Shown: positions 54 to 33,033 of the stretch, one piece after another
How positions within the stretch are numbered: position 1 is the first letter of the stretch
How the letters are laid out: the number at the start of each line of letters is the position of its first letter
NCBI GenBank assembly: GCA_047611725.1
Contig: JBLFWR010000004.1
Span: 10,496-74,495 of the forward strand
Origin: Candidatus Binatia bacterium
GTDB taxonomy: Bacteria; Desulfobacterota; Binatia; UBA1149; CAITLU01
Direction of reading: 5' to 3'
DNA length: 64,000 nucleotides
Made by a program: the position numbers and the translations under genes
The notes under the pieces: model-generated
What the model was told of the DNA's origin: nothing
Databases searched by the model: none
What the model saw: only the letters and a program-made list of their open reading frames with translations

Positions 54-1256
54 CTATTTGTGGGCCGCAGCACCGGCGGCCTCGATCAATATGGCTCGCT
101 CGTAGTCGGCCACATCTTCAAATGTCCCCTTAATTCGACGACGGTTCAGGAACAGGGTGGGGGTCGAACTCAGCTTTAGTTTTTCACCGCTTCGAGCCTC
201 GGCAACGATTTTTTCGAGAGTCTTATGCTCTTCCATGCAGACGCGAAAGGAGTCCTTATCGACTCCAGCGCGTTCGGCGAGGCGAAAGATATTGGTTTCG
301 AAAAGCTGGGGCTGATTGCCGAATAGCTCGGCCGAAACTTCGTGCTGTAGGCCCTGTAGTGATGCACATTGGGCCGCCTCAGCGGCACGACAGGCGTTGC
401 GGTGAACGGTGGAATCTATGGCACCGTTGCACTTCGCATCCAATGGGAAGTTGCGATGAACGACATGGACAAGGTTGCCGCGGCGCTCGAGAACCTCTTC
501 GAGGAGATTCCAATTGCGTCGACAAGAAGGACACTCAAAGTCTGAGTAGTCGATGAGCACGACGGGTTTGCTGCCAAGGTTGGCGGCTTCATCGTCGGAC
601 AAGACCAGCTGGTCGGAATTCTCGATCGGCTGCTCGAAATACCAAGCGTAGAAGTTCGGGTCGCCGGATTGAAGTTCTTGCAGCGTCATACTGCCCGGGT
701 CGAGGCGTTCTCCTTCGCCACCGGAAGAGGCCAGACCGATGGCGGCCGTAACGACCAACGCCGCTCCGGTGGAAGCGATTGCCCCGGCGACGGTCAATGG
801 GCGCGGATGTCCTGGATAGACACGCACGAACTCACGGCAGGCGAACGCAACCACTAAAGCCAGCGTAAAGGAGACGACGTACAACGAGGTACAAAGCAGG
901 CAGATTGTCTTCAGGATAAGGGCCGAGACCAGCGCCATGTACAAAGAAAACACGACCGATCCGATCGTGCCGGCCGCTGCCAGGCCCAGTAAGCGGCTGC
1001 CCGCTCGTCCGCCCTTTCTGGCCATCAAGAATGCTGCCGCCAGCGCTAGATACGCAAGCAGGGCGAGCCAGGCTACGGGTATCCCGGCGACCTTCGAATA
1101 GTCGCTCGATAGTACCGCGTCGCAATTGATCGAGCTGTTGACGTTGCAGAAGCTGGTGTATCGATCGCCGAGCGATGCGATTTGCGAGTGTACCCACGAA
1201 ATCTCAACCGCGATTGCCGCTCCAACGAGCGAAATTAGAGCGGCGGCGAGGAGCAA
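54..1256 (-). CDS. VKOR-family membrane oxidoreductase fused to a DsbA/thioredoxin-like domain (disulfide-bond formation)
   Basis: 400-aa ORF. The N-terminal ~150 aa are hydrophobic helices with a loop Cys pair (FCNVNSSINC) and a membrane CxxC (CLLC), the bacterial VKOR pattern. The C-terminal domain has a thioredoxin-fold CxxC (DFECPSCRR) in a DsbA-like context. Apparent TTG start at the ORF edge, so the start is uncertain. Confidence 0.8.
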   Translation of the reverse strand: MLLAAALISLVGAAIAVEISWVHSQIASLGDRYTSFCNVNSSINCDAVLSSDYSKVAGIPVAWLALLAYLALAAAFLMARKGGRAGSRLLGLAAAGTIGSVVFSLYMALVSALILKTICLLCTSLYVVSFTLALVVAFACREFVRVYPGHPRPLTVAGAIASTGAALVVTAAIGLASSGGEGERLDPGSMTLQELQSGDPNFYAWYFEQPIENSDQLVLSDDEAANLGSKPVVLIDYSDFECPSCRRNWNLLEEVLERRGNLVHVVHRNFPLDAKCNGAIDSTVHRNACRAAEAAQCASLQGLQHEVSAELFGNQPQLFETNIFRLAERAGVDKDSFRVCMEEHKTLEKIVAEARSGEKLKLSSTPTLFLNRRRIKGTFEDVADYERAILIEAAGAAAHK

Positions 1257-1386
1257 GCGCTTAAGGCGCGTTCCTGAATCTTTCGCAGACGTTTTCAGCT
1301 GAATTTCCCCGAGAAAACTGAGTGACGCGGCAACCTATCGGCCGGTTTTCCGGTTTGCAACTCGCCTCTGGCAAGGGCCCGGCTTG

Positions 1387-3183
1387 TCATGGCGTGGAAC
1401 CCGGCACTTGGGCCTCACAGCGTGCGACTGCGGCTTGGATTACGGGCTCGTCGAGGAGGCGAGCGGCTCGGCGATAGTCGTCCAGAGCCGCCGAACAACC
1501 CTGGCTACGCTCGCGAACCATGCCGCGGCCGTACAAAGCTTCAGGCACGTTGGGGGAAGATTCTAGGACGGTGTCGAACTCTTGTTCGGCGCGATCCAGA
1601 CGTCCATATCCCGCAAGGTCCATCGCATAGGCAATTCGCAGACCGATATGGCTGGGGTTGGTGGTTATCGATTCGGCACGAACCGCGAGGGCGCTTTCGC
1701 GGTCACCCGCGATCTCGTGGGTCACCACAAGGTTGTTCCATGCGCGGTCGAAATCGGGCCGCGAGGAAAGCGCGGTTCGAAAAGCGCGCCTGGCTTCGTC
1801 GAGCTTTCCGGCTTTGGCGAGCATGTTCCCCATGTTGTACGCGGCAACGCCGTAATCCGGCTTAATGGCCAGCGCGCTGCGAAACGAAGCTAGGGCCTCT
1901 TCGGTGCGGCCAGCTCGACCTAAGGCTGAGGCCAGTTCCATATGTGCCCGTGCACTGTGTGGCACGGCCTCTGTGGTTTGTTGAAATAGCTCGATGTGAG
2001 AACGCCAGTCACGCGTGCGGTCGATGTCGATGGCAATCCAGGCAAGGGCGACTGCGCCCAATACCACGCCAGCGCGTTTGCGATCGCGGTTTAGGGCGAA
2101 AGATAGCGCTGGCGCTGCCGCGAGGCACAACCCCAGGGTCGGCAGATAGAACAGACGCTCGCCCATGATCGTCCCAATCTGAACGATGCTGTTGGAGACA
2201 ATCGAGTACGAAGCAACAGCCAGCCCGAGGCCGACCGGTACGGCTGCGAGTTGCCGCCAGCGCCAAGCGCTCCACAGGCTACCTCCGCAAGTGGCAAACC
2301 CGATCACGCTCCAGAGGTTGCCGCGGAAGCCTTCGGCAATGCCAAGCGCATTGTAGGAATAGTCGATGCTGAGGGGGAGGGGCCAGACGACAAGTCCGAT
2401 GTAGCGGCCCAGGACAGCCAAAGCTCCGGCCGCGCGTCCAGGCAGATCGAGACCATGCAGCGGGTTGTCGAGGATATCGGCGGCTGTGGTCGCAGGAAGG
2501 AACGGCCCGTCAGCCGCGGCGCGCAAGCCAACGTAGGCTAGGAGTCCGATTCCAAGGGCCGCTGTTTCTTTTGCTGCACGACTGGCCGGCGCCGGTTGGT
2601 TACGATGCACAAAAATCGCGAACAGCGCCGGGGCCACGAGGATCGTCACTGCATTTTCTTTGGCTAGGATGCCAGCGAACAGGCAAAACGCTGCTGCTGT
2701 CAGCGCCATTGGTGACATTCGCGCGCGAAGCAAGGCCAGAGCTGCACCGGCAAAGCCCAGGGCAGCGAGGATTTCGGCTCGACCCACACTCCAAATTACG
2801 GCTTCGGAATGGATGGGCATTGCCACGAAGGCCAGAGCTGCTGCTGCGGCGCCGAGCCGGTCTACGCCCAAAGCTAGCGCCAGAAGCCATAGCAGCTGCC
2901 CGACTAGGGCATGAAGCACGATATTGGTCGCGTGAAAGGGGCCCGGCGCCGATCCGGATACCCAATGTTGGACCGCGTAGGTCAAGGTCGTCAGGGGTCG
3001 GTAGCCGGGAGAATCGGCACGGTCAGCACCCCACCAAGAGTACGTCGTGAAAATTTCCGGCAGATTCAGTTCGCCGACTACGTGCTCGTTGCTGATGATC
3101 GCGTTGACGTCGTCAGACACGAGCGGGGCATTGAATGCGCCCGCGTACGCGATTCCCGCAGCCACGACGAGGGCGGCGAACAT
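1387..3183 (-). CDS. Polytopic GT-C-type (TMTC/PMT-like) membrane glycosyltransferase candidate with C-terminal TPR repeats
   Basis: ORF 1387..3240; likely ATG at 3183 (MFAALVVAAG). The first-loop motif PLVSDDVNAIISNEHV resembles the conserved acidic motif of TMTC/PMT-type O-mannosyltransferases. Many hydrophobic segments follow. The last ~200 aa are TPR-like (e.g. AYNMGNMLAKAGKLDEARRAFRTALSSRPDF). Confidence 0.6.
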   Translation of the reverse strand: MFAALVVAAGIAYAGAFNAPLVSDDVNAIISNEHVVGELNLPEIFTTYSWWGADRADSPGYRPLTTLTYAVQHWVSGSAPGPFHATNIVLHALVGQLLWLLALALGVDRLGAAAAALAFVAMPIHSEAVIWSVGRAEILAALGFAGAALALLRARMSPMALTAAAFCLFAGILAKENAVTILVAPALFAIFVHRNQPAPASRAAKETAALGIGLLAYVGLRAAADGPFLPATTAADILDNPLHGLDLPGRAAGALAVLGRYIGLVVWPLPLSIDYSYNALGIAEGFRGNLWSVIGFATCGGSLWSAWRWRQLAAVPVGLGLAVASYSIVSNSIVQIGTIMGERLFYLPTLGLCLAAAPALSFALNRDRKRAGVVLGAVALAWIAIDIDRTRDWRSHIELFQQTTEAVPHSARAHMELASALGRAGRTEEALASFRSALAIKPDYGVAAYNMGNMLAKAGKLDEARRAFRTALSSRPDFDRAWNNLVVTHEIAGDRESALAVRAESITTNPSHIGLRIAYAMDLAGYGRLDRAEQEFDTVLESSPNVPEALYGRGMVRERSQGCSAALDDYRRAARLLDEPVIQAAVARCEAQVPGSTP

Positions 3184-3236
3184 TTCCGCATGGATTTTCA
3201 CATGGTCACGCCCTTGGATGGCTGACCGGGGCTGCC

Positions 3237-4442
3237 TCAACGGGAAACGACGTTTGTGACTGCCAACACCGGTAGTGGCGAGACTTGCTCGGTCTCAGTG
3301 TCGGCGGCGTCCATGACTCGTACGTTGAAGCTGCCGGGACTCAAGCTTTCGTTGGTCCGGAATGCGCACGTGACCACCGGGCCAGTCTCAGGCATCCCGT
3401 CCAAGTCGATGATTCCGATCTTGGCGGAACGTCCAAGTTTGTTTGCGGCGCCCAGCATGCCCCCCAAGAACAGGCAGTCCAGCTTGGTTGCACCCTGCGA
3501 GACAAAGCCGCCACTATCGCCGAGGTGGTCGATTTCGAACTGAAGGGCGCCGAGTTCATTGCTGCCTTCGACGATGGAGACTGTGATCTCGTATTCCGGA
3601 AGGCCGGGGCTAAATCCTGGAGAGTCGTCGTAGTTGTCAGTGGCGGTTCCGGTTTCTGCCTGGCCGTCGTCGGCCGCCGCTGGTGCAGACGGGCCAGCCT
3701 TATTGCCCAACGGATTGTTGGCGGCGATGCGGTCGCGCACGCGTTGCGCCGATGTTGATGCCGGCTCCACGGGTGCGACCGGCGCGGCGGGCACGGCGGG
3801 TGGGGTGGCCTTCGGTACGCTGGCGGTCGGAGCCTTTGGAGCTGGAGCCGGTTTGGATGCGGGTGTCGGGGCGGGGCTAGGCGGCGGATTGCTGCCTGCC
3901 GGCTTCTTTCCATCCGGCGAAACCTTCTGCTTGTCCGAAACCGCCGCCGGTGGCGTCGGTTTTTTATCGGTCTCCACGGGGGCCGGAACTGGGAGGGGTT
4001 GGATTCTCGCTTGGCGTGGAGAGCGGGGGTCGAGTTCCTTCCCTTCTTCGTCTTGGGCCTTCACGATCCTGGCTTTCATTGCCTTCTGGATTGTAGTCGC
4101 GTTGGTCATCGGGTCTGCCGGGATCATGCGGCAGGCGGCGAGATCGATTGGGCCGGTAAAACCGCGGTTGGAACGCGCGCGCAAAGTTAGGCGTCCCACG
4201 CCGTCGTCGGTGAAATCTCCGCCTACGAAGGGGCTGATGAAAGCGCACTCAAGATCAGAACCATCTCGGGAGATCGTCGCTCCGGCCTGCGAGTAGTCAA
4301 CAAGAATCGTCGCGCTCGCCAGCCTTGCGGTGTCTTGAGACAGGGAAATCACTACCTCGACGGGGGGTGCGCCACTGTTTCCACACGATGCGAGGATCAG
4401 GCCCAGGCCGGAGACGGCCAGAATTCGAGTGAACTTTTTCAC
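3237..4442 (-). CDS. Lipoprotein with two copies of a two-Cys beta-module separated by a long Pro/Ala/Lys-rich linker
   Basis: ORF 3237..4487. Probable GTG start at 4442 (VKKFTRILAVSGLGLILAS|CGN, lipobox) preceded by a GGGGGA Shine-Dalgarno-like run. Module copies lie at about 4032-4364 and 3240-3590 (ALQFEIDH...LDC...GPVVTCAFR). The linker is PAPTPASKPAPAPKAP-like. Confidence 0.75.
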   Translation of the reverse strand: MKKFTRILAVSGLGLILASCGNSGAPPVEVVISLSQDTARLASATILVDYSQAGATISRDGSDLECAFISPFVGGDFTDDGVGRLTLRARSNRGFTGPIDLAACRMIPADPMTNATTIQKAMKARIVKAQDEEGKELDPRSPRQARIQPLPVPAPVETDKKPTPPAAVSDKQKVSPDGKKPAGSNPPPSPAPTPASKPAPAPKAPTASVPKATPPAVPAAPVAPVEPASTSAQRVRDRIAANNPLGNKAGPSAPAAADDGQAETGTATDNYDDSPGFSPGLPEYEITVSIVEGSNELGALQFEIDHLGDSGGFVSQGATKLDCLFLGGMLGAANKLGRSAKIGIIDLDGMPETGPVVTCAFRTNESLSPGSFNVRVMDAADTETEQVSPLPVLAVTNVVSR

Positions 4443-4483
4443 GGATCCCCCTGAAGGCGGACAGCTGTTGAAATCGCTGCCAA

Positions 4484-5050
4484 TCACGGCGCGGTAGTCG
4501 TTGTGGTTGTGGACGAAGAGGTTGTAGTGGTCGAAGGGGAGCCATCGTCAGGCGCGACCGTCGTCGATGTTGATGTTGATGTTGCGCTGGCCGCGCTGAC
4601 GGCGACGGTGATCGTCGCCGTTTCGTCTGCGCCATCTGCGTCCTGCGCGGTTACGGTGCCAATTGTGAAGTTGCCGGATGTCGGAGCCACGGACGATTCG
4701 AAGGTGCACACGGCGACTTCCTCGTCTGCGTCGATGAGCGTGTCTCCGGCAGAAACGGCAATTTCTAGGTCGTCCACGTCGTCATCAACAAAAGAACTCG
4801 TGCCAGTCGCGTTGCCACTGGTTGAACAGTCCACGTTCGATCCCGCTCCCGTAAAGTCGCCTCCACCCGTGTAGGTGACGCCAAAGGTCAGCTGGTCGAT
4901 AGGGTTGGTAGCCGTGGCGACGGTGAATGAAATCAGAAAAGTCTGAATGTCACCCTGGCTGGGGCCGCAGCTGGTGATTAAAGGAAGAAGCAGACTTGCG
5001 AGGGTGACCAGGCGAAGTCGCGTGGAGAAGGAGTGCCATTGACGATTCAT
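4484..5050 (-). CDS. Lipoprotein with one two-Cys module and a Ser/Thr-rich C-terminal tail
   Basis: 188-aa ORF with lipobox LPLITS|CG. The module (LTFGVTYTGGGDF...VDC...EEVAVCTFE) lies at about 4598-4951. The tail is STSTSTTVAPDDGSPSTTTTSSSTTTTTTAP. It overlaps the downstream ORF by 4 nt, which suggests an operon. Confidence 0.75.
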   Translation of the reverse strand: MNRQWHSFSTRLRLVTLASLLLPLITSCGPSQGDIQTFLISFTVATATNPIDQLTFGVTYTGGGDFTGAGSNVDCSTSGNATGTSSFVDDDVDDLEIAVSAGDTLIDADEEVAVCTFESSVAPTSGNFTIGTVTAQDADGADETATITVAVSAASATSTSTSTTVAPDDGSPSTTTTSSSTTTTTTAP

Positions 5051-5143
5051 TGGCTTTGAATTCTAGGTTAAACGCCGCCAGGCGGCCAATCGACGCTTTG
5101 GCTTCGCCGGCCGCTGCAGCGATTGGCCGCAGCGTGAACGAAC

Positions 5144-5178
5144 AAAAGCCCGACCCCTTTTTCGGGGGCCGGGCTTTT
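5144..5178 (-). terminator. Rho-independent terminator candidate after the 625-aa Cys-rich gene
   Basis: GC-rich hairpin aaaagcccgacccc / gggggccgggctttt with a 6-nt loop. On the minus strand a T-rich tract (ttttgtt) follows. It lies 41 nt downstream of the stop at 5219. Confidence 0.7.
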
Positions 5179-5218
5179 GCATTGATCTCAGCCACGAGGG
5201 CTCAAATCGTTGTCGGGC

Positions 5219-7096
5219 CTACTCGGTCTGACAGTTCTCGTCGCAGCCGTCGTCTCCGACGAAGTTGCTGTCGTCGCAGGTTTCGTCGCAACCAATTTCG
5301 CCATCGCCGCAGCGACAGACCTGGATAAACGACTTCAGGCTGATGGCCCCGGGGCCGGTCAAGCCACCCGCGCTGTTAATGGTCGACGACGAGGTCGCCG
5401 GCACACAGAACAGAGCGGCCGTGGTCGGCCGTGAGCTGTCATCAACGCAGGTGTCGTCTCCGGCGCAATCGGCATCGCTTGTACAGGCGTTGGGATTGTC
5501 CGGATCGTTTGCGCAGTAGCTGCCCAACGGTGAGGGGACACCGTCTCGGGTGATCTCAGCCTCGAAGCAGGGCTTGAACTCGAACTGACACACGCCTGCA
5601 CTGTTGGCAGCACAGGTTGAATCGTCGTTGCAGGAGCGGAAGCTCTGCAGCGAGCAAGTGCCCACCAAGTTGTCCGGGCACAGCTCCTTGTCATCCAAGC
5701 CGCAGATGAATTTGAACCCTACACCGCATTCGTTCGGCTGAGACTGCGGAGCGTTGGCGCCCACCGATCCACTTCCAACCGTACAAGTACTGTCACCTGG
5801 ACAGGACTCGTCGTCGAAACACGGCAGCGTCGGATCGTCGTCGCAGAATCCACAGTGGCACCAGTGTCCACAGGTAATGGGCTGAATCGGAGCTGCTGCA
5901 CAGGCACCGCCGCCACAGTCACCGTTGGTGCTGCATACGGTGCGTGGGTCGTCGTCGCAGCGCAGGCAATCCGCGTTGGTGCTGCACGAGTCACCATTGT
6001 CAACGCAGGTCGCAGGTCCGTTCAGCGGGTTGTTGCCCAACAGGAAGTTCGAGCACGGTAGCTTCGCCGTCTTCGTCACTGTGCCCGTAGTCACGTTGTC
6101 GAAGATGATCGACAAGCCAGCACCGGAAATGTTGGCACCCAGAGTCGGGGGACAATCGAACGAAACACCACCGAAATCAGGACTGATCGAATCGATCGTG
6201 CAGTCGGCCCCTGGGAACTGTCCATCGTCGCAAGTGAAGGTGGCTCCGAGCTCTAGGTTCTGGCCCAGACGTCCGCAGCGAGGACAGGGCTGATCGACCG
6301 CGTCGCCCAAGAACACACGCGATTTCAGGTTTACGCCGACCTTGGAATCACCAGTCACCGCGTTGCTGGTGCCGGTGAATTCACTGTCGAAAATCGACAC
6401 TACGCAGACCGGGTTGCCGGCCGACGATAGCGGGAGCGGGGGGCCGAACATGAACTTACATGCCACGCCACTGGGGCAATCGCCGTCGGAATCGCAGGCT
6501 GCAAGCGTTGTTACACAGCGCTTCTGACCAACAGGTCCGGCGATCTCGCAGTCGGTGTCGCCACCTTCATTGCAATCGCAGGTCGGGTTGCAAAGTTCGC
6601 CGCTCGGGCAATCTTCGTCTTCGACGCAGATTTCATCCGAGATGCTACAGCGGCGCAGGGTGCGAATGAGCACCGAACCGCCTTCAATCACTTCGGCGTT
6701 GTGGGCGATGCCTGTCCAGCCGGAATCCAGATCGGATCCACTCAGGACAAAAAGTTCAGCTGAGGTGCACGCGGGGCCGCCGTCTACCGGTGGGCAGTCA
6801 CAATCGAGTGTCACCCCAACTTGGCCGACCGCGTAGCGAAGACACTGCAGGGCGTCACTGGCACGGACGTTGCCGTCGCCGCTGACATCGCAAATGCACT
6901 CCTCGTCGCTGTCTGGGAGGCAAGCCTGGGCGCCTACGGCGACCTTAAGGATGGCCAGGCAGTCGCTGGCTCTCGGGCCCTCGTTATTGGTTGACGGTTG
7001 GCTACAGTCGCCCTGAGCGGCCAAAGCTGCTGCGGGCAAGAAGATTGAGAGGACGAGCGCGCCAGCGGTAAACAGGCGCATTGCGGAATTTCGCAC
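5219..7096 (-). CDS. Secreted, extremely Cys-rich protein (paralogue 1) with an N-terminal dockerin-like repeat pair and a C-terminal Myxococcus-type Cys repeat
   Basis: 625-aa ORF with a GTG start 7-8 nt after AAGGAGGG. Signal peptide ...PAAALAAQ|GD. 60 Cys by my hand count. Dockerin-like CDVSGDGNVRASDALQCLRYAVG. Core motifs SGWTGIAHN, PPLPLSSAGNPVC, PCPRCG, NISGAGLSI and FCVPATSSSTINSAGGLTGPG are shared with the ORFs at 10374..13346 and 13661..15742. The C-terminus CGDGEIGCDETCDDSNFVGDDGCDENC resembles the Myxococcus cysteine-rich repeat. Confidence 0.85.
   Translation of the reverse strand: MRNSAMRLFTAGALVLSIFLPAAALAAQGDCSQPSTNNEGPRASDCLAILKVAVGAQACLPDSDEECICDVSGDGNVRASDALQCLRYAVGQVGVTLDCDCPPVDGGPACTSAELFVLSGSDLDSGWTGIAHNAEVIEGGSVLIRTLRRCSISDEICVEDEDCPSGELCNPTCDCNEGGDTDCEIAGPVGQKRCVTTLAACDSDGDCPSGVACKFMFGPPLPLSSAGNPVCVVSIFDSEFTGTSNAVTGDSKVGVNLKSRVFLGDAVDQPCPRCGRLGQNLELGATFTCDDGQFPGADCTIDSISPDFGGVSFDCPPTLGANISGAGLSIIFDNVTTGTVTKTAKLPCSNFLLGNNPLNGPATCVDNGDSCSTNADCLRCDDDPRTVCSTNGDCGGGACAAAPIQPITCGHWCHCGFCDDDPTLPCFDDESCPGDSTCTVGSGSVGANAPQSQPNECGVGFKFICGLDDKELCPDNLVGTCSLQSFRSCNDDSTCAANSAGVCQFEFKPCFEAEITRDGVPSPLGSYCANDPDNPNACTSDADCAGDDTCVDDSSRPTTAALFCVPATSSSTINSAGGLTGPGAISLKSFIQVCRCGDGEIGCDETCDDSNFVGDDGCDENCQTE
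6821..7009 (-). other. Dockerin-like EF-hand repeat pair (domain of the 625-aa protein)
   Basis: ASDCLAILKVAVG ... CDVSGDGNVRASDALQCLRYAVG. The second segment fits the D-x-[NSD]-x-D-G-x(5)-D-A-L-x-x-L-[KR] calcium-loop plus helix pattern of dockerin repeats. The first segment keeps only the helix. Confidence 0.6.
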
Positions 7097-7241
7097 GGGG
7101 GGATCCCTCCTTGGATTTCAGTTGGGTGATCATGGCCCTTTGGCCGAGCAGACGGAAGGCTAAAACTAAGGGGAGCCCTGCGAACAGGACTCCCCCTAGT
7201 TATAAAGTGCCGTAGGCGTCTAACCTGCGGCCGTTTTCTTG

Positions 7242-9085: not shown

Positions 9086-10210
9086 ATGCAACCGACCGAG
9101 TCGTTGATTGCGGCCAGCCGCAGCCGTAGCCCATTGCGAATCGCAACCGTCGCGACCGCGATAACACTAGCTTTTGCCCCAGCGCAGGCCCCGGCCTTTT
9201 TCCAATCGACCTCGCTTGAGGGCGGTATCGGCCACGATATCAGTGGTGTTTGGCTGGCGATGCATCATGTTTTGCCGGAATTTCGAATCCGCTTCGAAAA
9301 GCCCCAAGATACTGAAATTCCTTCGGAATATGTCCCCTTCAAGGTTGGCCCGGTGCCTGCCGATCTCTCCAAAGCTTTAGGCCCCGGGGCGGCCGGGGTT
9401 GCGGTCACCGAAATCACCGACAGCGCCTTGGCCAATCGCTATGGGATCTATCCCGGAGATGTGATCCGCAAGATTGGCAGCTACAGCGTTAGGGACGTGG
9501 ATAGTTGGCAAGAGGGCCTTGAGAACGCCCCCAAGGTGATTCTGCTCACGGTACGTCGCCCGAGCCTGAAACAGTCGAAGGGGCGGCTATTCAAGCTCAC
9601 GTATGAGGCGAGCAGCGCCACGGAACAGGTGGGCGACGGAAGTGAAACCGTGGTTGCTGAGGAGACCTTCAAAGTCGAAGTTCTCGATGTTGCACTGCCC
9701 GGTGACGCGGTTGCTGAAGAACAGCGCAAGAAGTCGGAGTTCTGGGAGCCTTCGGCGGCCGACATTGAGGCGCTGCGGGCCGAGTGGTTCAAGTTGTCGA
9801 TGGTCAAACCTCTTCGGTTTTTACGGGGCGATACCCGGGTTGTCGCGTCGTCTCACTACGGTGCGGATCTCGCCGGTGACTCCAATACGAAAGACACGCT
9901 TTTCGCGATGGTGCTCAAACTGGAGGCGAATCCCGTCGGCGCGGGCGGGGGGCAGTTGGTCGATATTTACGGTATCCGAGAGATCAACGGCGCAGAGATC
10001 GCAGGTACTTACGTAACCGCGCTCATCGCGCGGGCACCGTTCCCGATCAGTGTTGAGTTCAAAGGAAATTTCACGATGACCCGGCTTGATGATCTTTCTG
10101 ATCGCGATGTTGCTTGGCGGAAGGAAAATTCCAAGAATGCTGCCGACCGGGAAGCGGAAGATCTAGACAAGTTCGAGCTGGCCCCGGATATTCCGACCGA
10201 CCTGCAGTAA
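9086..10210 (+). CDS. Secreted PDZ-domain protein, function unknown
   Basis: ORF 8897..10210. The internal ATG at 9086 follows CAGGAGGA and gives a signal-like N-terminus (LRIATVATAITLAFAPAQA). PDZ-like segment GIYPGDVIRKIGSYSVRDVDSWQEGLENAPKVILLTVRR. Confidence 0.65.
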   Translation: MQPTESLIAASRSRSPLRIATVATAITLAFAPAQAPAFFQSTSLEGGIGHDISGVWLAMHHVLPEFRIRFEKPQDTEIPSEYVPFKVGPVPADLSKALGPGAAGVAVTEITDSALANRYGIYPGDVIRKIGSYSVRDVDSWQEGLENAPKVILLTVRRPSLKQSKGRLFKLTYEASSATEQVGDGSETVVAEETFKVEVLDVALPGDAVAEEQRKKSEFWEPSAADIEALRAEWFKLSMVKPLRFLRGDTRVVASSHYGADLAGDSNTKDTLFAMVLKLEANPVGAGGGQLVDIYGIREINGAEIAGTYVTALIARAPFPISVEFKGNFTMTRLDDLSDRDVAWRKENSKNAADREAEDLDKFELAPDIPTDLQ

Positions 10211-10247
10211 CGACGTTGAATCCCGTGAGGCCTTGAGCTTCACGCAG

Positions 10248-10286
10248 AAGGGCCCGCACCAATCATATTGGTGCGGGCCCTTTTCG
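10248..10286 (+). terminator. Rho-independent terminator after the PDZ gene
   Basis: 13-bp perfect stem aagggcccgcacc / ggtgcgggccctt with a 9-nt loop, followed by ttttcgtt. Confidence 0.75.
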
Positions 10287-10303
10287 TTATTGCCGATAGA
10301 GCG

Positions 10304-10368
10304 ACGTGTCGTCCCGGTGGGCAGGGTTAGGTCGCAACTTGCGACCCCCTTCCGCCGGGACGACACGT
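10304..10368 (-). terminator. Nested (hairpin-within-hairpin) structure immediately after the stop of the 990-aa gene
   Basis: The outer 14-bp perfect arms acgtgtcgtcccgg (10304-10317) and ccgggacgacacgt (10355-10368) enclose an inner 7-bp hairpin ggtcgca-act-tgcgacc (10330-10346). The structure starts 6 nt after the TAG at 10374-10376. No clear U-tract. Confidence 0.45.
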
Positions 10369-10373
10369 ATCAG

Positions 10374-13346
10374 CTATGGTAGCGACGGAACGTTCAGGAC
10401 CGACGTTCCTCCTTGGCGCAACCGACCCATTCCAGGCAAGCCCGCTGTTGAGTTCACTGCTACCGACGTTGTCGCCGGTACGCAGTAGTTCGCAACGGTG
10501 AAGAAGTTAGTCGGATCTGCGTTACCGTTAAGCGTATCTCCACCCTCAACCTGATGGTCTGGCAGGTAGCACAAAGCGACATCAGCCACGCAGATACCGG
10601 CGCCGGGAACGATCTCGTCGCAGTTCTGGGTCGTGTTTTCGTCTTCGGGCTGGCACGGGAGCGACTCAAACTCTCCGCTACAGTGGAATGTCTTGCCAGC
10701 GCCACACACCCCGGCGTCAGGATCTACCACGTCGCAGGGGAATCCAGCGCAGTCGAAGGTGTCACCACAGACCAGGCCATCTTGGCTGCCGCCGTTACAC
10801 TGTCCAGAAGGTAGGCAAAGCGGAACACACCGACCGCTCGGACAAGCGTCGCCACAGACGCCGTCGCCAGGGGTGACAAGGGTGTCGCAATCGGCGTTAA
10901 CCGAACAGCTGTTGAGGCTCTTTTCGGGATCGCCCGCTGTGCAATGCACTGGGGTATCCGTACAGGTGCCTCCAGGGCAATCGCTGTCCTCGTCGCAGGC
11001 AGCGGTGCTGTTACTACAGGTCGTAAAAATCCCACTCCCGGTGTTGCCTGTCACACAGCCCTGGCCGAGTTCCGCGCCAGCATTGCATGAGGCGTTACAC
11101 TTGTTTGGCTTGGTCCGTATTGAGCCAGTACCCAGGACACAGTTGCAGTCAAAGTTCTCGAAACCTTGAGCATCGCAGGCACCAGGGAAGGGCAGTGCTA
11201 CTAGCTCGCTAGTTGTCGGTTGAAATAGGATCTGCAAGCCAGCTCCGGAAATGTTTTTCCCGACCAAGGGCTGACAGTCTACCGAAGTGGTCCCGAAATT
11301 AGTGAATGCCTCGACCCGACACGTGTCTCCTGCATCGATTCCCTGAGCGCAAATCAAGTCAAGCTGACAAGGCCCTCCAGCGCAGCTCGGAGTCGCTGTG
11401 CTGCAGACTTCTTCTGGCCCTGGGCAATCCGAGTCGAAACGACAATCGAGTCCCCAACATTCCCCGCCATCGGTACAATCGCCATTGGCTGTGCAGATAG
11501 TGCCGTCGTTGCTGCCAAAACGGCACTCAAGGGTGTCGCCACAGGTTCCTTCACACCGTTCCTCGTTGCGGTCGCCACCAAGACAGTACCCGCCGCATGT
11601 CGGACAAGGACTTGTCTGCGTGGTGCCGAGGAAAACCTTGGCTCGCAGTTCGTAGTTGATTATGTGCTCACCCGTAACGTGGTTGGCGGTGCCCTCCACG
11701 TCGGAGAAATACTCATTTCTCACGCAAGTCTGGGTTCCACTCGAGGACAGAGGAAGCGGCGCGCCGTTGGTGAGGACCACGCACATTGCCGCGCTGTTAC
11801 AGCGCCCCCGGCACACTTCACTCTCGGCACAATCCGACTGTCTGACGCACGGCCCGGTTGGCGATCCGCCAGTATCGTAGCACTGGGCGTTGCAGTCCGA
11901 CTCGCCGGTACACGACGCTCCGGCATTAGTGGTGAAGGCGTCGCACTGGGCGCAGTCGGCGTCTTCATGCTTGCCATCTACATCACCGAAAGCATCGCAG
12001 CTGGGATCACCAAGATCGAGTCCCCAGTCACAACGCGGCTCTGTTTGCGCGAACACGGTGCAAATCGGGTCGGTTGAAACGCCGATACATGTTGCCGTGT
12101 CGATAGCGTCGAACTCGGTACAGTCACAATTAGTGACCGCGGTGATAAACCCAGCTCGGTCCGGGACACCGGCGTTGTGAGCCAAGCCGGTCCAGCCGCT
12201 GTCAAGCTTTGCTGCAAATCCATCAACAAACCGACGCGCGCGCGGAATATCTCCGCAGGTGCACTCGAACGCATCGCCCGGAGGCAAGCAGTTCCCAACG
12301 CAGGCCGAGTCTTCGGTCCCATCACATTCCTCGCCGATCAGCGCGAACTGGTTTCGAACCGGATTCACGCGATTGTCGCCGCAAAAAGACTTGACGCTAA
12401 GCGGGTAGGCCGCGTTGATGATACTCGTGGGGAGGAATTCCGTTTCCCCGGGGCCTTCGGTCGTTGACCCGGCCTCCATAGCTACGTCTGATAGACATGC
12501 CTGCGCCGCCTCGACCGTCGTGACTCCGCCGACGCCTAGTCCGCATAGATCAAGTACTGTCAGTGTTTCCACGGTGCACTTCTTAGGAATGGCGTCGACG
12601 AGCTTCTGGATCGCTTTCGCTACTTTCTCAGAAGTCTTTTGGTCTGCGACCTGGCAGTTGGTGGTCGTCACCGTAACCGGCTCTCCTGGAACTAGGGCCG
12701 TACGGTTGACCTTGTCTCGACACTTGGCGACGGTTTTGCCGATCGAAGCGGCAGTTTTGCCAACGGTTAAACCCAGAGCGAACATACACTTCTCGGCTTC
12801 TTTGGTGAGCCCGCTTTCGGAGTCGATGCTGCCAGCCACGTTGGCAAGGATCGACTCGGCGATTTGCTCGGCGGCATCAGACACACAATTCCCGATGTCG
12901 GCGGCGTCGGTGATCTCTCCGCAGAGTGACCCCGGGAATCCAATTTTTGAGGCATTCATTGGCTTGGCTTTAGCCCCTGCAGTGCAGATTTCGGGGCTCG
13001 AGCCGTTGGGTGGGCAGGCTTGGCTGTCGATACAGAGCAAACCTGAAACGGAGCAAGTGCTGACGCACTTTTTCCCAGCGAGCTTGACCGCTTTTGCCCG
13101 GGCCTTTGTGATTTTCAACGACGCTTTGGCGTCAGGGCACGACGCAGCCGGATTGGAGAGAAGGCACTTGACGCCATCTTTCGCCGCGTTTTGAACTAGC
13201 TTGGCGGCGCTTTTTGCCATGATGCCAGTACACTTGGCTTCAATCTGGCTGAATGCCTGAGCGTGGGCGTTGCCTGGGGCAACTAGCGCAAACGCCAAGG
13301 CTGTGAGAACCGCCATTGATGTGGCGGCGGTGTGAAAACGTTTCAT
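10374..13346 (-). CDS. Secreted, extremely Cys-rich protein (paralogue 2) with an N-terminal helical Cys-ladder domain
   Basis: 990-aa ORF with ATG shortly after GGAGGAG and signal peptide ...LVAPGNAHAQ|A. The first ~300 aa are Lys/Ala-rich with spaced Cys. Then come an FCGDN...EECDG Myxococcus-repeat-like segment and the shared core motifs DSGWTGLAHN, GAPLPLSSSGTQTC, SPCPTCGG, NISGAGLQI and YCVPATTSVAVNSTAGLPG. Confidence 0.85.
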   Translation of the reverse strand: MKRFHTAATSMAVLTALAFALVAPGNAHAQAFSQIEAKCTGIMAKSAAKLVQNAAKDGVKCLLSNPAASCPDAKASLKITKARAKAVKLAGKKCVSTCSVSGLLCIDSQACPPNGSSPEICTAGAKAKPMNASKIGFPGSLCGEITDAADIGNCVSDAAEQIAESILANVAGSIDSESGLTKEAEKCMFALGLTVGKTAASIGKTVAKCRDKVNRTALVPGEPVTVTTTNCQVADQKTSEKVAKAIQKLVDAIPKKCTVETLTVLDLCGLGVGGVTTVEAAQACLSDVAMEAGSTTEGPGETEFLPTSIINAAYPLSVKSFCGDNRVNPVRNQFALIGEECDGTEDSACVGNCLPPGDAFECTCGDIPRARRFVDGFAAKLDSGWTGLAHNAGVPDRAGFITAVTNCDCTEFDAIDTATCIGVSTDPICTVFAQTEPRCDWGLDLGDPSCDAFGDVDGKHEDADCAQCDAFTTNAGASCTGESDCNAQCYDTGGSPTGPCVRQSDCAESEVCRGRCNSAAMCVVLTNGAPLPLSSSGTQTCVRNEYFSDVEGTANHVTGEHIINYELRAKVFLGTTQTSPCPTCGGYCLGGDRNEERCEGTCGDTLECRFGSNDGTICTANGDCTDGGECWGLDCRFDSDCPGPEEVCSTATPSCAGGPCQLDLICAQGIDAGDTCRVEAFTNFGTTSVDCQPLVGKNISGAGLQILFQPTTSELVALPFPGACDAQGFENFDCNCVLGTGSIRTKPNKCNASCNAGAELGQGCVTGNTGSGIFTTCSNSTAACDEDSDCPGGTCTDTPVHCTAGDPEKSLNSCSVNADCDTLVTPGDGVCGDACPSGRCVPLCLPSGQCNGGSQDGLVCGDTFDCAGFPCDVVDPDAGVCGAGKTFHCSGEFESLPCQPEDENTTQNCDEIVPGAGICVADVALCYLPDHQVEGGDTLNGNADPTNFFTVANYCVPATTSVAVNSTAGLPGMGRLRQGGTSVLNVPSLP

Positions 13347-13410
13347 AATTAGGTTCTCCTCCTAGAGATCAGGGCGCGCAGCGCGAAAGCCCCAAAACCG
13401 ATTTGCAATG

Positions 13411-13431
13411 CCAGCCCTAACTTAGGGCTGG
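13411..13431. promoter_or_regulatory. Perfect 10-bp palindrome upstream of the 990-aa gene (operator or 5-prime-UTR hairpin candidate)
   Basis: ccagccctaa-c-ttagggctgg lies 65-85 nt upstream of the start codon at 13346, inside a 314-bp non-coding gap. Confidence 0.25.
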
Positions 13432-13575
13432 ACTCAGAAGTCTTTGACTGGTCGTCTCCCGCTTTCTCGTCAAGGCACGCCCAAGACACGCCCGACAGCG
13501 ACCCTATACCTAAAGACCCGGACAGGGCCATGTCAAGGTCGAAAGATAGGAACACTGCCTGGCTTGCCTAAATGA

Positions 13576-13610
13576 AGAAGGCCCCCGACGCGATGCGCCG
13601 AGGGCCTTCA
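13576..13610 (-). terminator. Terminator candidate after the 702-aa gene
   Basis: Hairpin gaaggccc...gggccttc (8-bp outer stem with extra internal pairing). On the minus strand ttcattt follows. It lies about 50 nt downstream of the stop at 13661. Confidence 0.5.
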
Positions 13611-13660
13611 GTGGTTCGGTTGGAGTCCGAGGCCGACAAAGCCGGCTTCAGGCTACGTTG

Positions 13661-15742
13661 TTAAAACAACTTTTCGGTTAACATGTCGATGCGAATGGCT
13701 GCTGGACCAGGTGTGCCAGCAGCGAGGTTCACGCCGCCATTGTTGGTCGGGGGCACGCAGAACGTTCCAACGACAATCGGGTTGTCCACGTCCGGTGTGC
13801 CTGAGAGCAGAATTGGATCCAGGAAGCAGGTCCGGGTCTCGATAACCGTACACTCTCCGCAATCGTTGCCCGGACAAACATCACCGGCTCCGCCCTCGAA
13901 AGTCTCGCAGTCTGCGGTGGTGATGCACGCGAGCACGCCTCCTCCGTTGGCACGAGTCAGACCGTCACAGAACTTGTCGAACGGGCCTGCACCGGAGCAT
14001 GAGCCTCGATCAGTCTGGGAGATGTCGTCGTTACACACGGTGTCTCCACACTGGTTGGGAACACGGTCGGCGGCTGCTCCGCCACCGTTCGAGGTGCAGG
14101 TCGTACCGCCGACAGCGACGCATTCGGCGTCGGAGTTACAGGGCTGGGACAATGCCCCAACGCACTGTCCGCAAGCGCAGTCCAGTGTGTTGAGCGCGCC
14201 GTCACACTTCACATCGAAACCGAGTGAGGTGCTGCCGGTGGTCAGCTCAAGGTTGATGACCAAGCCTGTGCCGCTGATGTTTTCAGTGGCTGAGGAGGGA
14301 CAGTCCAAGCTGACATCGCCGAAGCTCGCATCCAGAGCATGGACGTCGCACGGTTGGCCATCTTGCGCACCGCCCGTGCAGGTTCCGTCGCGATTGCCGT
14401 CCTGAGCGGTGGTGTCCCCTTCACAAATCGGACAAGGCTGCTGTTGCACCTCGCCAGTGTGAACCTTCGACAACAGGTTGATGTTGAGTATGCCGGTGCC
14501 GTTGTCCGGATCCGAGGTGCCGGTGATATCTTCACGGAGGCGGTTCTGGGAGCAAGTAAACGTCCCGCCAGCCGAGATGGCCAAAGGTCCGCCGAGGTAG
14601 TAGCCGCATTCCCCGCCAGATGGGCAGGCAGGATCGTTTCCAAACGGGTTGGTACACTCGATCGATGTATCTTGCGCGCAACGTGCGAAGTTCGAATACT
14701 GGTCGCTTCGTGTGCTTAGACCGTCGATCGTACACGAACCGCAGCTGCCCTCGCCCAGTCCCGGGCAAGTGATGTCGGCAGCAATTTCGTAGTCATCCGG
14801 CAAGTCGAGGTTGTGGGCAACTCCCGTCCAGCCAACGTTGAGCACCGTACCGGTGGCTCCGGCTGAGCCTTGCCCAGCGCGGATGGTAGAAACGATCCCG
14901 TTTGGACAGGGGCTGTCGCCGTAGCCGGTTGCGTAAGCGAGATCTTTGGCTGCCAGGAATTCAGCTGCCGCACAAGTCTGGAGGCTGGCGATGTCGGCGC
15001 CGCACACTCCCAGTGTGACCAAATCGGCTGGGGCTCCGCAGAACTTGGTGATGAACCCGTCAGCCTTTTCCAGGGACTTCGCTGCTTTGCCTTTCAGGTC
15101 CACGCCACTGCACAGGGCAATGTCGTTCTCGCCGAGCTTCTTGTCGTTGTCCTTCTGGCACTTCTGTTGGTTCTTCAGGAAGTCGTCGAGATATTTCTGG
15201 TAACCCTTCTGAACGAATTTGGCGCACTTCTGGCTGTCCTTGTCGTCCGTGAAGCTGGCAGGGTCCGGAAGGCCGAGGGCTGCGGCGGAGGCGGTCTCCA
15301 CGGCATTCAAGACTTCGCAGGTCAGGCAGTCGGCGATTTCTTGGTCGTCGGCCAAGGGCGTGCTCAAGCTTTCCGACGTGATGCATTCGGCCGAACAAGT
15401 GAAGAATCGGTCTACCACTGATTGAGCCTTCTCAGCGGGGCAATTCTTGTCGAGTGCCGTTACGATTTTTTCGGTGCCCTTGCCAATCTTGCCTTTGCCA
15501 GCATCGGCTACGATGGTGTCATAACAGTCGTCGGTGGCTTCCCGCTTGCCGGCCAGACGGTCTGCGTAGCACTTGCCAATGGCCTTGCCGGCGGTCTTCA
15601 CCATTTTGCCGACTTCTTTGGCCAGGGCGCCTCGGCACTTTTGTTCATCTTTATTGAACTGGGCTTGTGCCAGTGTGGGCGTGAGAGAGAGGGCGAAGGC
15701 AAAAGCCATTGCCCCTCCGAGAATTCTCGAGCGGTTATTCAT
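13661..15742 (-). CDS. Secreted, extremely Cys-rich protein (paralogue 3) with an N-terminal helical Cys-ladder domain
   Basis: ORF 13661..15769. The ATG at 15742 follows GGAGGAG and gives MNNRSRILGGAMAFAFALSLTPTLAQAQ|F. The N-terminal ~250 aa are homologous to the N-terminus of the 990-aa protein. Core motifs are NVGWTGVAHN, GGPLAISAGGTFTC, QPCPICEG, NISGTGLVI and FCVPPTNNGGVNLAAGTPGP. Confidence 0.85.
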   Translation of the reverse strand: MNNRSRILGGAMAFAFALSLTPTLAQAQFNKDEQKCRGALAKEVGKMVKTAGKAIGKCYADRLAGKREATDDCYDTIVADAGKGKIGKGTEKIVTALDKNCPAEKAQSVVDRFFTCSAECITSESLSTPLADDQEIADCLTCEVLNAVETASAAALGLPDPASFTDDKDSQKCAKFVQKGYQKYLDDFLKNQQKCQKDNDKKLGENDIALCSGVDLKGKAAKSLEKADGFITKFCGAPADLVTLGVCGADIASLQTCAAAEFLAAKDLAYATGYGDSPCPNGIVSTIRAGQGSAGATGTVLNVGWTGVAHNLDLPDDYEIAADITCPGLGEGSCGSCTIDGLSTRSDQYSNFARCAQDTSIECTNPFGNDPACPSGGECGYYLGGPLAISAGGTFTCSQNRLREDITGTSDPDNGTGILNINLLSKVHTGEVQQQPCPICEGDTTAQDGNRDGTCTGGAQDGQPCDVHALDASFGDVSLDCPSSATENISGTGLVINLELTTGSTSLGFDVKCDGALNTLDCACGQCVGALSQPCNSDAECVAVGGTTCTSNGGGAAADRVPNQCGDTVCNDDISQTDRGSCSGAGPFDKFCDGLTRANGGGVLACITTADCETFEGGAGDVCPGNDCGECTVIETRTCFLDPILLSGTPDVDNPIVVGTFCVPPTNNGGVNLAAGTPGPAAIRIDMLTEKLF

Positions 15743-16005
15743 AAATCTCCTCCGGTTATTTCGATACAAATTGGCGGCGAATGTATTTATACGTCTCGCA
15801 CCGTGTTGGGGCGGAGATTAAGATTGCGTCCGTAGCGGTGTCAAGGGAAGTTCTAGGATAACCTAAGCAATAAGCGTTCAACTCGGAGTTTAGGAAGCTC
15901 GCTCGGCAGTCGAAATGTACGATGACGCAGCGAGCCGTTGAGCGGTTTTCCGCGCTGCCAGACCAAGCCGTCGCGAAAGCGATTCCCCACAGGAGACTGA
16001 TTCGA

Positions 16006-16386
16006 ATGAAGAAAACCACTATTTCGTTAGCCCTGCTCGTCGCCACGACCGTCGTCGTGAGCGTGTCCGTTGCTGAAGCCGGTCTGACCTGTCGCAAGGT
16101 TGTTGCCAAAGAGGCAACGGGTGAAGGCCGCAACGCCCTAAAAGGGTCGCGTGTAAAGTGTGGCGAAGGCGAATTCCTGACTGGAGGTGCCTGTTATCCT
16201 GAGGTTCGTCCCGAAGAAGACGGCAGTTGCCAAACCTCGGCGATGGGAATCATCCAAACCTTAGTCGATTATCCCGGCACCACCGAGGCTGCATTTTTCA
16301 CTTGCATGCAGACCGGAGGAACGGATTGTCCGGTCGATGAGCGCACTCGAGCCATGGCGATTTGCTGCAGAATCGTCGACGAATAG
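16006..16386 (+). CDS. Small secreted Cys-rich protein, unknown function
   Basis: ORF 15922..16386. The internal ATG at 16006 follows AGGAGA and gives the signal peptide MKKTTISLALLVATTVVVSVSVAEA. The mature part has 8 Cys. It is divergent from the 702-aa gene. Confidence 0.6.
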   Translation: MKKTTISLALLVATTVVVSVSVAEAGLTCRKVVAKEATGEGRNALKGSRVKCGEGEFLTGGACYPEVRPEEDGSCQTSAMGIIQTLVDYPGTTEAAFFTCMQTGGTDCPVDERTRAMAICCRIVDE

Positions 16387-32959: not shown

Positions 32960-33033
32960 CGATGATCTGTACCGAGGCCGATACCCGCAGGCAATGAGGT
33001 GCGTCTTTCCTTGATTTGGAGCCGGGCCGTGGG

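Follow-up and report, generated by a model that had tools for sequence, protein, structure and literature searches.

A conserved Binatota envelope locus predicted to encode a scaffoldin-like assembly of cysteine-rich proteins

What might large cysteine-rich secreted proteins, modular lipoproteins, a disulfide oxidase and a glycosyltransferase-like membrane protein have to do with one another, that their genes lie side by side? The question is raised by a 64,000-nucleotide (nt) stretch of DNA from Candidatus Binatia bacterium (contig JBLFWR010000004.1), hereafter the window, in which the minus-strand genes of such a locus span positions 54-15769. An earlier note, made from the sequence alone, had described them as a self-contained accessory module for building a disulfide-stabilised, possibly glycosylated surface assembly. 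We propose that they form a conserved, Binatota-specific envelope locus for a non-cellulosomal scaffolded assembly, in which docking between lipoprotein modules and dockerin-like domains would organise the components and neighbouring enzymes would mature them; we give this account an even chance of being correct. The envelope assembly would be lineage-specific and scaffoldin-like, and the same locus would supply its oxidative and probably also its glycosylating maturation; we infer the docking, the glycosylation and the location. As to its role, the most parsimonious guess is an envelope layer that is structural or adhesive. Since the Binatota are uncultured, a conserved envelope system would be one of few handles on their cell biology.

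Cohesin-like modules and dockerin-like domains

The locus comprises the following features, given by position in the window.

54-1256, minus strand: VKOR-DsbA fusion, a quinone-linked disulfide oxidase of 400 amino acids (aa); Pfam VKOR, Thioredoxin_4 and DSBA.
1387-3240, minus strand: 617-aa protein (604 aa in public gene calls) with a TMTC-like GT-C membrane domain and C-terminal tetratricopeptide repeats (TPR); TPR families in Pfam, homologues with PF08409.
3237-4487, minus strand: 416-aa lipoprotein with two predicted cohesin-like two-cysteine modules and a Pro/Ala-rich linker between them; lipobox LASC, module hidden Markov model (HMM).
4484-5050, minus strand: 188-aa lipoprotein with one predicted cohesin-like module and a Ser/Thr tail; lipobox ITSC, module HMM.
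5219-7096, minus strand: Cys_625, a secreted cysteine-rich protein of 625 aa with 60 cysteines; predicted dockerin-like domain, body of ~480 aa and C-terminal DUF4215-like repeat, from AlphaFold2 (AF2) and Foldseek.
7242-8765, minus strand: Lipo_507, a scaffoldin-like lipoprotein of 507 aa with an N-terminal beta-sandwich, an acidic cysteine-rich segment, two predicted cohesin-like modules and disordered Thr-rich linkers, from AF2 and Foldseek.
9086-10210, plus strand: secreted PDZ-like protein without cysteine, 374 aa in public calls, divergently transcribed; weak PDZ_6 match (E 3e-4).
10374-13346, minus strand: Cys_990, a secreted cysteine-rich protein of 990 aa with 84 cysteines; duplicated helical Cys-pair domain and body (body HMM), no dockerin.
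13577-13609, minus strand: terminator-like hairpin between the 702-aa and 990-aa genes, with a 15-bp GC-rich stem followed by a T-run, read from the sequence.
13661-15769, minus strand: 702-aa secreted cysteine-rich protein (682 aa in public calls) with 46 mature cysteines; helical Cys-pair domain and body (body HMM, BLASTP), no dockerin.
16006-16386, plus strand: small secreted 8-cysteine protein of 126 aa; AEA/GL signal (slash, cleavage site) and synteny.
16487-18454, minus strand: DUF1302 outer-membrane protein (Pfam DUF1302, E 1.3e-22), a conserved flanking neighbour whose membership in the system is uncertain.

The repeated two-cysteine module that had been noticed in the lipoproteins is real: an alignment of 15 modules, taken from the window and from three related loci, spans ~115 residues, and exactly two cysteines in it are invariant. 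The module HMM matched the 416-aa protein twice (E 3.8e-33 and 1.1e-33) and the 188-aa protein once (E 7.9e-31). An AF2 model of Lipo_507, built from a 41-sequence alignment, contained three beta-sandwich domains with a predicted local distance difference test score (pLDDT) >90, separated by disordered Thr-rich linkers, and module 2 was modelled as a nine-stranded beta-sandwich. When this model was compared with the PDB by Foldseek, the best match was the type II cohesin dyad of ScaA (3l8q; E 9.4e-6, probability 1.0). More than 20 cohesin chains were recovered at probability 0.97-1.0, with other beta-sandwich proteins at low probability; the cohesin matches include 2jh2, 2xdh, 2y3n, 7urp and 2ccl, at target-normalised template modelling scores (TM-scores) of 0.43-0.62. 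In these models, and by fold only, the lipoprotein modules are cohesin-like.

A dockerin-like domain was found at residues 28-104 of Cys_625 (DNA 6785-7015). The AF2 model of this protein (81-sequence alignment; pLDDT 91.4, predicted TM-score 0.82) placed N-terminal helices at residues 43-53, 66-69 and 79-89, which correspond to the three-helix dockerin fold. The only credible PDB matches of Cys_625 in Foldseek were dockerins from cohesin-dockerin complexes (4uyq_B, 4fl4_A/G/J/D and 4dh2_D), at probability 0.6-1.0, TM-score 0.65-0.74 and a root-mean-square deviation of 2.5-3.8 A. The dockerin hallmark is a duplicated segment of ~22 residues, each copy a Ca2+-binding loop followed by a helix; the second segment of Cys_625, DVSGDGNVRASDALQCLRYAVG, is canonical. 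Ten of 46 members of the Cys_625 family match Pfam Dockerin_1 (PF00404) at E <= 0.1. The earlier observation that none of these secreted proteins resembles a characterised family thus holds for sequence searches but not for predicted structure. The HMM, AlphaFold and Foldseek comparison that had been suggested as a check left the 480-aa body of Cys_625 unmatched, but it revealed modules resembling cohesins and an N-terminus of Cys_625 resembling dockerins.

An HMM of the N-terminal domain of the Cys_625 family found two more copies in the window, in proteins of 450 aa and 572 aa. Together with a further module lipoprotein, the genes concerned lie outside the locus, which is accordingly not self-contained.

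18896-20248, minus strand: secreted 450-aa protein with a dockerin-like N-terminus (dockerin HMM, E 3.9e-7).
42698-43201, plus strand: 167-aa lipoprotein with a single predicted cohesin-like module (module HMM, E 3.3e-21; lipobox LAAC).
51799-53517, minus strand: adaptor-scaffoldin-like 572-aa protein (module and dockerin HMMs; Pfam Dockerin_1 and DUF4215).

The 572-aa protein reads, in order, signal peptide, module, Ser/Thr linker, module, two DUF4215 repeats, dockerin and module, with three matches to the module HMM. Its dockerin was matched by the Cys_625-family HMM at E 1.6e-15, has two canonical Ca loops and passes Pfam (Dockerin_1, 25.8 bits, cut-off 22.9), as do its repeats (DUF4215, 40.2 bits, cut-off 27); an orthologue (P0157) also passes Dockerin_1 with 24.3 bits. 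The gene sits among housekeeping genes (TatD-like, metG). The 450-aa protein gave a BLASTP match to the Cys_625 N-terminus and a Dockerin_1 match below threshold (E 0.0055); the rest of it is an unassigned domain, and its gene lies directly downstream, on the same strand, of a TonB-dependent receptor gene (20259-22325, minus strand). The 167-aa lipoprotein, the fifth module protein of the window, is encoded between a ROK-family kinase gene and proS.

Modules occur in tandem on lipid-anchored proteins, and together with a dockerin in single proteins. Of the homologues retrieved, 81 have the dockerin N-terminal to the body and nine have it C-terminal, and module and dockerin are combined in one polypeptide in nine different orders. 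One related contig (L033, 5784-11475) encodes an adaptor (module-module-dockerin) beside a pyrroloquinoline quinone (PQQ)-dependent dehydrogenase, a dockerin protein of 279 aa and an isolated helical Cys-pair domain of the kind that begins the 990-aa and 702-aa proteins; a Pfam scan of these adaptor-gene neighbours gave no functional hint. In another (L008, 10001-13685), a dispersed paralogue with a Cys-rich body, a Disintegrin match and a C-terminal dockerin adjoins a DUF1329/TP_0789-like gene, of a family that is the usual partner of DUF1302.

In the assembly that we propose, the lipoproteins would act as scaffoldins whose cohesin-like modules bind the Ca2+-type dockerin-like domain of Cys_625 and dockerin proteins encoded elsewhere. 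The predicted folds, the architectures and the co-occurrence of module and dockerin are observed, and proteins with both may act as adaptors. The dockerin-less 990-aa and 702-aa paralogues could, more speculatively, join through the shared body or the helical Cys-pair domain.

Several results weigh against this scheme. The Pfam cohesin family PF00963 gave no match, even at E <= 10, to the three lipoproteins and 41 homologues, no PDB sequence matched by the module profile was a cohesin, and hhalign of the modules against CipA cohesins returned a probability of 0.2%. A homology search with the 15-module alignment returned nothing. Because every sequence-level cohesin test was negative, the assignment is one of predicted structure, and beta-sandwich folds are common; for the same reason, filing the modules as members of PF00963 was rejected. 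On the dockerin side, the N-terminus of Cys_625 scores 14.2 bits against Dockerin_1, below the gathering cut-off of 22.9. Its first segment keeps the helix (A.DCL.IL..AVG) and has a degenerate, Cys-containing loop, and only one of the three large Cys-rich proteins of the locus carries the domain.

The same results can be read without docking. The lipoproteins would then be beta-sandwich spacers or adhesins, the dockerin-like domain a Ca2+-stabilised fold, and the Cys-rich proteins would act alone, for example as adhesins or toxins, with the cluster reflecting shared regulation or a shared need for maturation, close to what the earlier note had proposed. Modules without detected sequence homology to cohesins and 990-aa and 702-aa proteins without dockerins are what this reading would lead one to find; paralogues with Disintegrin insertions hint at adhesion, and dispersed paralogues function without neighbouring lipoproteins. 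Set against these points are a Foldseek list that is specific for cohesins and not for generic Ig or FN3 folds, the repeated fusion of module and dockerin in so many orders, the shift of the dockerin between N- and C-terminus, and the module lipoprotein that always adjoins the dockerin-bearing orthologue. We consider independent action of these proteins unlikely.

If docking does occur, dockerin partners may hide in cohesin-fold families that Pfam does not recognise, as the modules found here both next to dockerins and fused with them would illustrate. Dockerin-like modules are reportedly widespread outside cellulolytic Firmicutes, usually without known partners. A broader version of the proposal holds that the Binatota possess a phylum-wide cohesin-dockerin network with cohesins beyond the reach of sequence models, that an envelope superstructure is built from a new fold of ~30 disulfides, and that a TMTC-type enzyme glycosylates the scaffoldin modules or linkers. 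It would also account for dockerin-like modules that have no recognised cohesin partner. This version is tentative, and we lean towards doubting it as a whole.

Organisation and conservation of the locus

Every open reading frame (ORF) named in the earlier note was recovered in place. In the direction of transcription, the minus-strand genes encode the 702-aa, 990-aa, 507-aa, 625-aa, 188-aa and 416-aa proteins, followed by the 617-aa protein with its transmembrane (TM) domain and TPR array (hereafter TM+TPR) and the 400-aa VKOR-DsbA; the PDZ-like and 126-aa genes are the plus-strand members of the cluster. The same-strand layout that had been described is therefore correct for the TM+TPR and VKOR-DsbA genes but not for the gene of the 126-aa protein.

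Secretion signals were read directly from the N-termini, with a lipobox taken as a signal peptide ending in [LVI][ASTVIG][GAS]C. Lipoboxes were seen in the 416-aa (LASC), 188-aa (ITSC) and 507-aa (VGGC) proteins, as in the dispersed 167-aa one (LAAC), and Sec signal peptides with AxA cleavage in the 625-aa (ALA/AQ), 990-aa (AHA/QA), 702-aa (AQA/QF) and 126-aa (AEA/GL) proteins. All seven secreted proteins previously counted are thus present with Sec or lipoprotein signals, but the count was one short, since the PDZ-like protein is an eighth within the cluster and conserved with it. From these signals, all components would leave the cytoplasm via Sec and three would be lipid-anchored. Positions +2 and +3 of the lipoproteins are N or D. 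Because the signals are Sec and lipoprotein signals only, with N or D at +2/+3, the assembly may equally well be periplasmic or exposed at the surface.

The 188-aa and 416-aa genes overlap at start and stop by GTGA, and the 416-aa and 617-aa genes by TTGA. The hairpin at 13577-13609 lies 52 nt beyond the TAA stop of the 702-aa gene, and a TTGACA promoter-like box (~13530-13545) and a strong AGGAGGA ribosome-binding site lie upstream of the 990-aa gene. Since hairpin and box separate these two genes, the cluster comprises at least three transcription units. With tRNA-Sec and SelB genes nearby, a selenocysteine insertion sequence (SECIS) role of the hairpin was considered and rejected: the gene ends in TAA, and the hairpin, at that distance from the stop and followed by a T-run, is terminator-like. 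A 128-aa ORF between the lipoprotein and PDZ-like genes (8781-9167, minus strand) is probably spurious, being absent from the public calls of two contigs with an identical 625-aa protein and neighbours.

At least 14 Binatota assemblies share the gene order, with protein identities of 31-58%. The recurring order is DUF1302 protein, small Cys protein, ~700-aa protein, ~1000-aa protein, PDZ-like protein, scaffoldin-like lipoprotein, dockerin-bearing ~625-aa protein, module lipoprotein(s), TM+TPR, VKOR-DsbA, GerE-type helix-turn-helix (HTH) protein, PDZ-S41 peptidase and rotamase; in some genomes the dockerin-bearing ~625-aa gene is duplicated. Even the most divergent locus (L032), with a lipoprotein only ~32% identical, retains it. 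Cys_625, module lipoprotein(s), TM+TPR and VKOR-DsbA followed one another in all 12 related loci whose downstream flank is long enough, while the order lipoprotein, TM+TPR, VKOR-DsbA was found in none of 12 dispersed paralogue loci. Intergenic gaps in the relatives measure 3-130 nt, and the PDZ-like gene has the same position and orientation in 13 loci. Conservation of the gene set, which the neighbourhood comparison had been meant to examine, is thereby borne out, with short gaps and overlaps.

The locus had been called accessory, and this description did not survive. The order is kept in all flanked related loci and in no dispersed paralogue locus, so we regard the locus as lineage-core. GC content is uniform (0.57-0.63) between the locus and the rest of the window, and with the conserved synteny this led us to reject a horizontally acquired or accessory island. 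Lipo_507 has 66 homologues, and where these have a named source, it is Binatia or Deltaproteobacteria; for Cys_625 and Lipo_507 homologues taken together, the named sources are Binatia/Binatota, or metagenome-assembled genome (MAG) labels of Limnocylindrales, Deltaproteobacteria, Dadabacteria and Myxococcales. One contig (L026, CAXQPB010000119.1) is labelled Nitrosopumilus, an archaeon, yet contains the whole bacterial locus including DUF1302. Because bacterial outer-membrane genes lie on an archaeon-labelled contig, it is most likely a binning error in a public MAG.

The DUF1302 protein keeps its position, at 63-80% identity, in four related loci (L005, L011, L026 and L030). The 126-aa protein is the most conserved protein of the cluster, with 73-81% identity across loci; both are far more constrained than the other cluster proteins (31-58%). 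No Pfam, NCBIfam or PDB sequence match was found for the 126-aa protein.

Cysteine-rich proteins and maturation enzymes

The three large Cys-rich proteins (625, 990 and 702 aa) had been taken for paralogues, and BLASTP and the body HMM agree that they are. BLASTP gave E values of 2e-19 to 4e-19 (702-aa against 625-aa) and of 2e-13 to 4e-13, and the body HMM matched the 702-aa protein at E 4e-37 and the 990-aa protein at E 2.7e-16. The Cys-rich proteins contain 9.6, 8.5, 6.6, 5.2 and 4.1% Cys; for the outer-membrane and TonB-receptor genes nearby the figure is 0.3-1.3%. The helical Cys-pair N-domains of the 990-aa and 702-aa proteins are homologous to each other and duplicated in the former; a PDB sequence search with the Cys_990 domain was without a match. 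The C-terminal repeat of Cys_625 and the repeats of the 572-aa protein are Myxococcus-type acidic Cys-rich repeats (TIGR02232/DUF4215, TIGR04201). For the ~480-aa body of Cys_625, Foldseek found no fold match in the PDB or BFVD. Confidently predicted yet unmatched in both, it is a candidate for a new disulfide-rich fold.

Mature Cys counts (60, 84, 46, 8, 20, 4 and 2, excluding the lipid-modified Cys) are even in all seven proteins. The same holds for 78 of 88 homologues of Cys_625 and for all 27 homologues of Lipo_507, and most Cys columns are invariant or nearly so. Because the counts are even and the columns conserved, complete disulfide pairing and a heavy load on the adjacent VKOR-DsbA would fit. 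A metal-binding, metallothionein-like role was judged unlikely given the even counts, the strict Cys conservation and the adjacent oxidase.

That oxidase had been recognised as a VKOR-DsbA fusion, and the assignment is secure at the level of family and active site. Three Pfam families match above their cut-offs (VKOR PF07884, 80.3 bits, cut-off 27.5; Thioredoxin_4 PF13462, 51.3 bits; DSBA PF01323, 38.3 bits), and every active-site motif is preserved (CLLC at 119-122, loop C37/C45, CPSC at 242-245). The DsbA half also gave a weak match, below the cut-off, to NF041057, a family of thioredoxin-like (seleno)lipoproteins. In the proposed scheme VKOR-DsbA would oxidise the cysteines, forming one disulfide per lipoprotein module and ~30, 42 and 23 in the three large proteins. 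The enzyme identity and even Cys counts are observed, and the conserved adjacency suggests the enzyme-substrate link.

The call of a TMTC/PMT-like glycosyltransferase for the TM+TPR protein holds through its homologues but not by direct match of its own membrane domain, for which neither Pfam nor the PDB gave a hit. TPR families in Pfam cover residues 410-600, and TPR proteins dominate the matches of PDB sequence searches with the full protein and with a 38-sequence homologue alignment. A crude hydropathy scan gave 10 hydrophobic segments, ~10-11 in the N-terminal domain. TMTCs have 11 TM segments at the N-terminus and then a TPR array on the non-cytoplasmic side, with the DUF1736 loop between TM7 and TM8 (PMC7801869). 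For the N-terminal domain, phmmer against 1.8 billion representatives yielded 31,233 homologues. PF08409 (TMTC_DUF1736) was matched by 31 of 38 sampled homologues (phmmer E <= 3e-34), the best at 5e-12, and an acidic DD motif (D43/D44) in the first extracytoplasmic loop is invariant in the alignment of these 38. Transitive homology therefore supports the term TMTC-like GT-C, as do the invariant motif and the ~10 hydrophobic segments.

The Thr-rich linkers that had been pointed out in the lipoproteins are a conserved feature: Thr accounts for 35% of residues and Ser for 10% across 62 linkers of the 507-aa family, whose median length is 63 residues. Linkers of cellulosomal scaffoldins are O-glycosylated. 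With this precedent, and because eukaryotic TMTCs are described as acting on beta-sandwich cadherin domains (PMC11292533) and the lipoprotein and TM+TPR genes overlap, the lipoproteins are plausible acceptors of the TM+TPR enzyme. Through its periplasmic TPR domain, the TMTC-like GT-C would bind the lipoproteins, which are encoded by genes in translational coupling with the GT-C gene. It would take sugar from a polyprenyl-phosphate donor and O-glycosylate either the Thr/Ser-rich linkers or the beta-sandwich modules of the lipoproteins. If so, these proteins would be the first natural substrate set for a very large bacterial TMTC-like family, and the coupling of the gene to its candidate substrates makes its function directly testable.

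Two further considerations count against this maturation scheme. First, VKOR-DsbA may be the general oxidase of the cell. Second, since the flanking S41 protease, rotamase and DUF1302 genes are also syntenic, part of the conservation may be plain collinearity. On a rival reading, both enzymes adjoin the cluster by coincidence, VKOR-DsbA as a general DsbA/DsbB replacement and the TMTC-like protein as a general envelope glycosyltransferase, in a conserved envelope-biogenesis neighbourhood with an S41 protease and a peptidyl-prolyl isomerase. Synteny does reach past the cluster to the GerE-type HTH, PDZ-S41 peptidase, rotamase, DUF1302 and tRNA-Sec/SelB genes, the TMTC-like family is enormous (31,233 representatives), and VKOR homologues are said to replace DsbB genome-wide in several phyla. 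Coincidence sits less well with gaps of 3-130 nt or gene overlaps (TTGA, GTGA), with an order kept even in the most divergent locus, and with the extreme disulfide load that the adjacent genes put on an oxidase. We rate coincidental adjacency as improbable; it concerns the maturation link only and is compatible with docking.

A non-protein acceptor of the TM+TPR enzyme also has to be weighed against O-glycosylation of the lipoproteins, because TMTC membrane domains are structurally closest to ArnT, which modifies lipid (PMC7801869). The enzyme would in that case modify lipid or polysaccharide in the manner of ArnT. Besides this kinship, the membrane domain of the window protein reaches no Pfam model, and among bacterial TMTC-like enzymes our literature search found none that is characterised. 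The C-terminal TPR array is, however, typical of protein-substrate recognition, the gene is translationally coupled to genes of lipoproteins with Thr-rich linkers, and the cadherin domains described as substrates of eukaryotic TMTCs (PMC11292533) are beta-sandwiches like the modelled modules. An ArnT-like activity thus appears to us quite improbable.

A second membrane pair lies elsewhere in the window, with a 20-nt overlap: a TM protein with a weak TPR match (23607-25592, plus strand) and a PMT/PMT_2-type GT-C glycosyltransferase (25573-27267, plus strand). Paralogy of this pair to the TMTC-like gene was considered and rejected, as neither member is paralogous to it.

Relation to known systems and neighbouring genes

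The nearest parallel to the proposed docking assembly is the clostridial cellulosome (CipA/ScaA-type). Both have tandem cohesin-fold modules, here known from predicted structure, with Thr/Pro-rich linkers and cell anchoring; both have the dockerin fold on separate proteins, some of which carry both domains like adaptor scaffoldins, and both have dockerin-bearing genes dispersed around the genome. The Binatota system resembles cellulosomal systems in its mobile dockerin, its tandem modules and Thr-rich linkers on an anchored protein and its adaptor-like proteins with both domains. The Binatota modules differ in having no detected cohesin sequence similarity and in each carrying a conserved predicted disulfide. 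Anchoring in the Binatota locus is predicted to be by lipoprotein acylation, with outer-membrane genes present, whereas cellulosomes use SLH domains or sortase; its presumed cargo is Cys-rich proteins of unmatched fold in place of carbohydrate-active enzymes, and oxidase and GT-C genes adjoin it.

A non-cellulosomal complex of this kind has been proposed before. The 'planctosome' of freshwater Planctomycetes is a hypothetical cohesin/dockerin complex of an outer-membrane bacterium, inferred from genomes only (PMC6461901), and is in these respects like the present proposal. Its modules are recognised by standard models and its cargo is peptidases, whereas the Binatota locus has a cryptic cohesin-like family, cargo that is non-enzymatic as far as visible, and maturation enzymes within the locus. 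Solved non-cellulosomal cohesins of Clostridium perfringens (2jh2, 2w1n, 2vo8) and Archaeoglobus fulgidus (2xdh) are among the best matches of the modules (target-normalised TM-scores 0.49-0.62) and likewise represent cohesin folds used outside cellulose degradation; they come from other phyla and have neither a lipoprotein scaffold nor the Cys pair. No paper linking Binatota with dockerins or cysteine-rich proteins was found in our literature search.

Each of the maturation enzymes also has recognisable relatives. Eukaryotic O-mannosyltransferases TMTC1-4 share the architecture of a multi-spanning GT-C domain (DUF1736) followed by TPRs, and the invariant DD motif and the homologues matching PF08409 add to the likeness; the bacterial protein itself is below Pfam detection, so that the likeness is one of architecture and the activity is predicted. 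Bacterial VKOR-thioredoxin fusions such as Synechococcus VKOR-Trx share the VKOR CxxC, the loop Cys pair and a fused periplasmic thioredoxin-fold domain with its own CxxC. The present fusion differs in being embedded in an operon-like cluster whose products have up to 42 predicted disulfides each. The Myxococcus-type acidic repeats, to which the C-terminal repeat of Cys_625 and the 572-aa repeats belong, cover only ~35 residues, and the 480-aa body lies outside any model.

Two observations concern genes around the locus. A tRNA-Sec gene lies just beyond the cluster (18711-18806, plus strand), and related contigs carry genes for SelB and for an AIRS/AIRS_C protein, SelD- or ThiL-like, just past what corresponds to the left edge of the window (L001, 21394-21878; L005, 20894-21823). 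With tRNA-Sec on one side and SelB and the AIRS gene on the other, selenocysteine machinery brackets the locus. Farther along the window, a 667-aa protein (33016-35019, plus strand) combines an AAA_22/STAND-like ATPase domain with a C-terminal PG_binding_1 domain.

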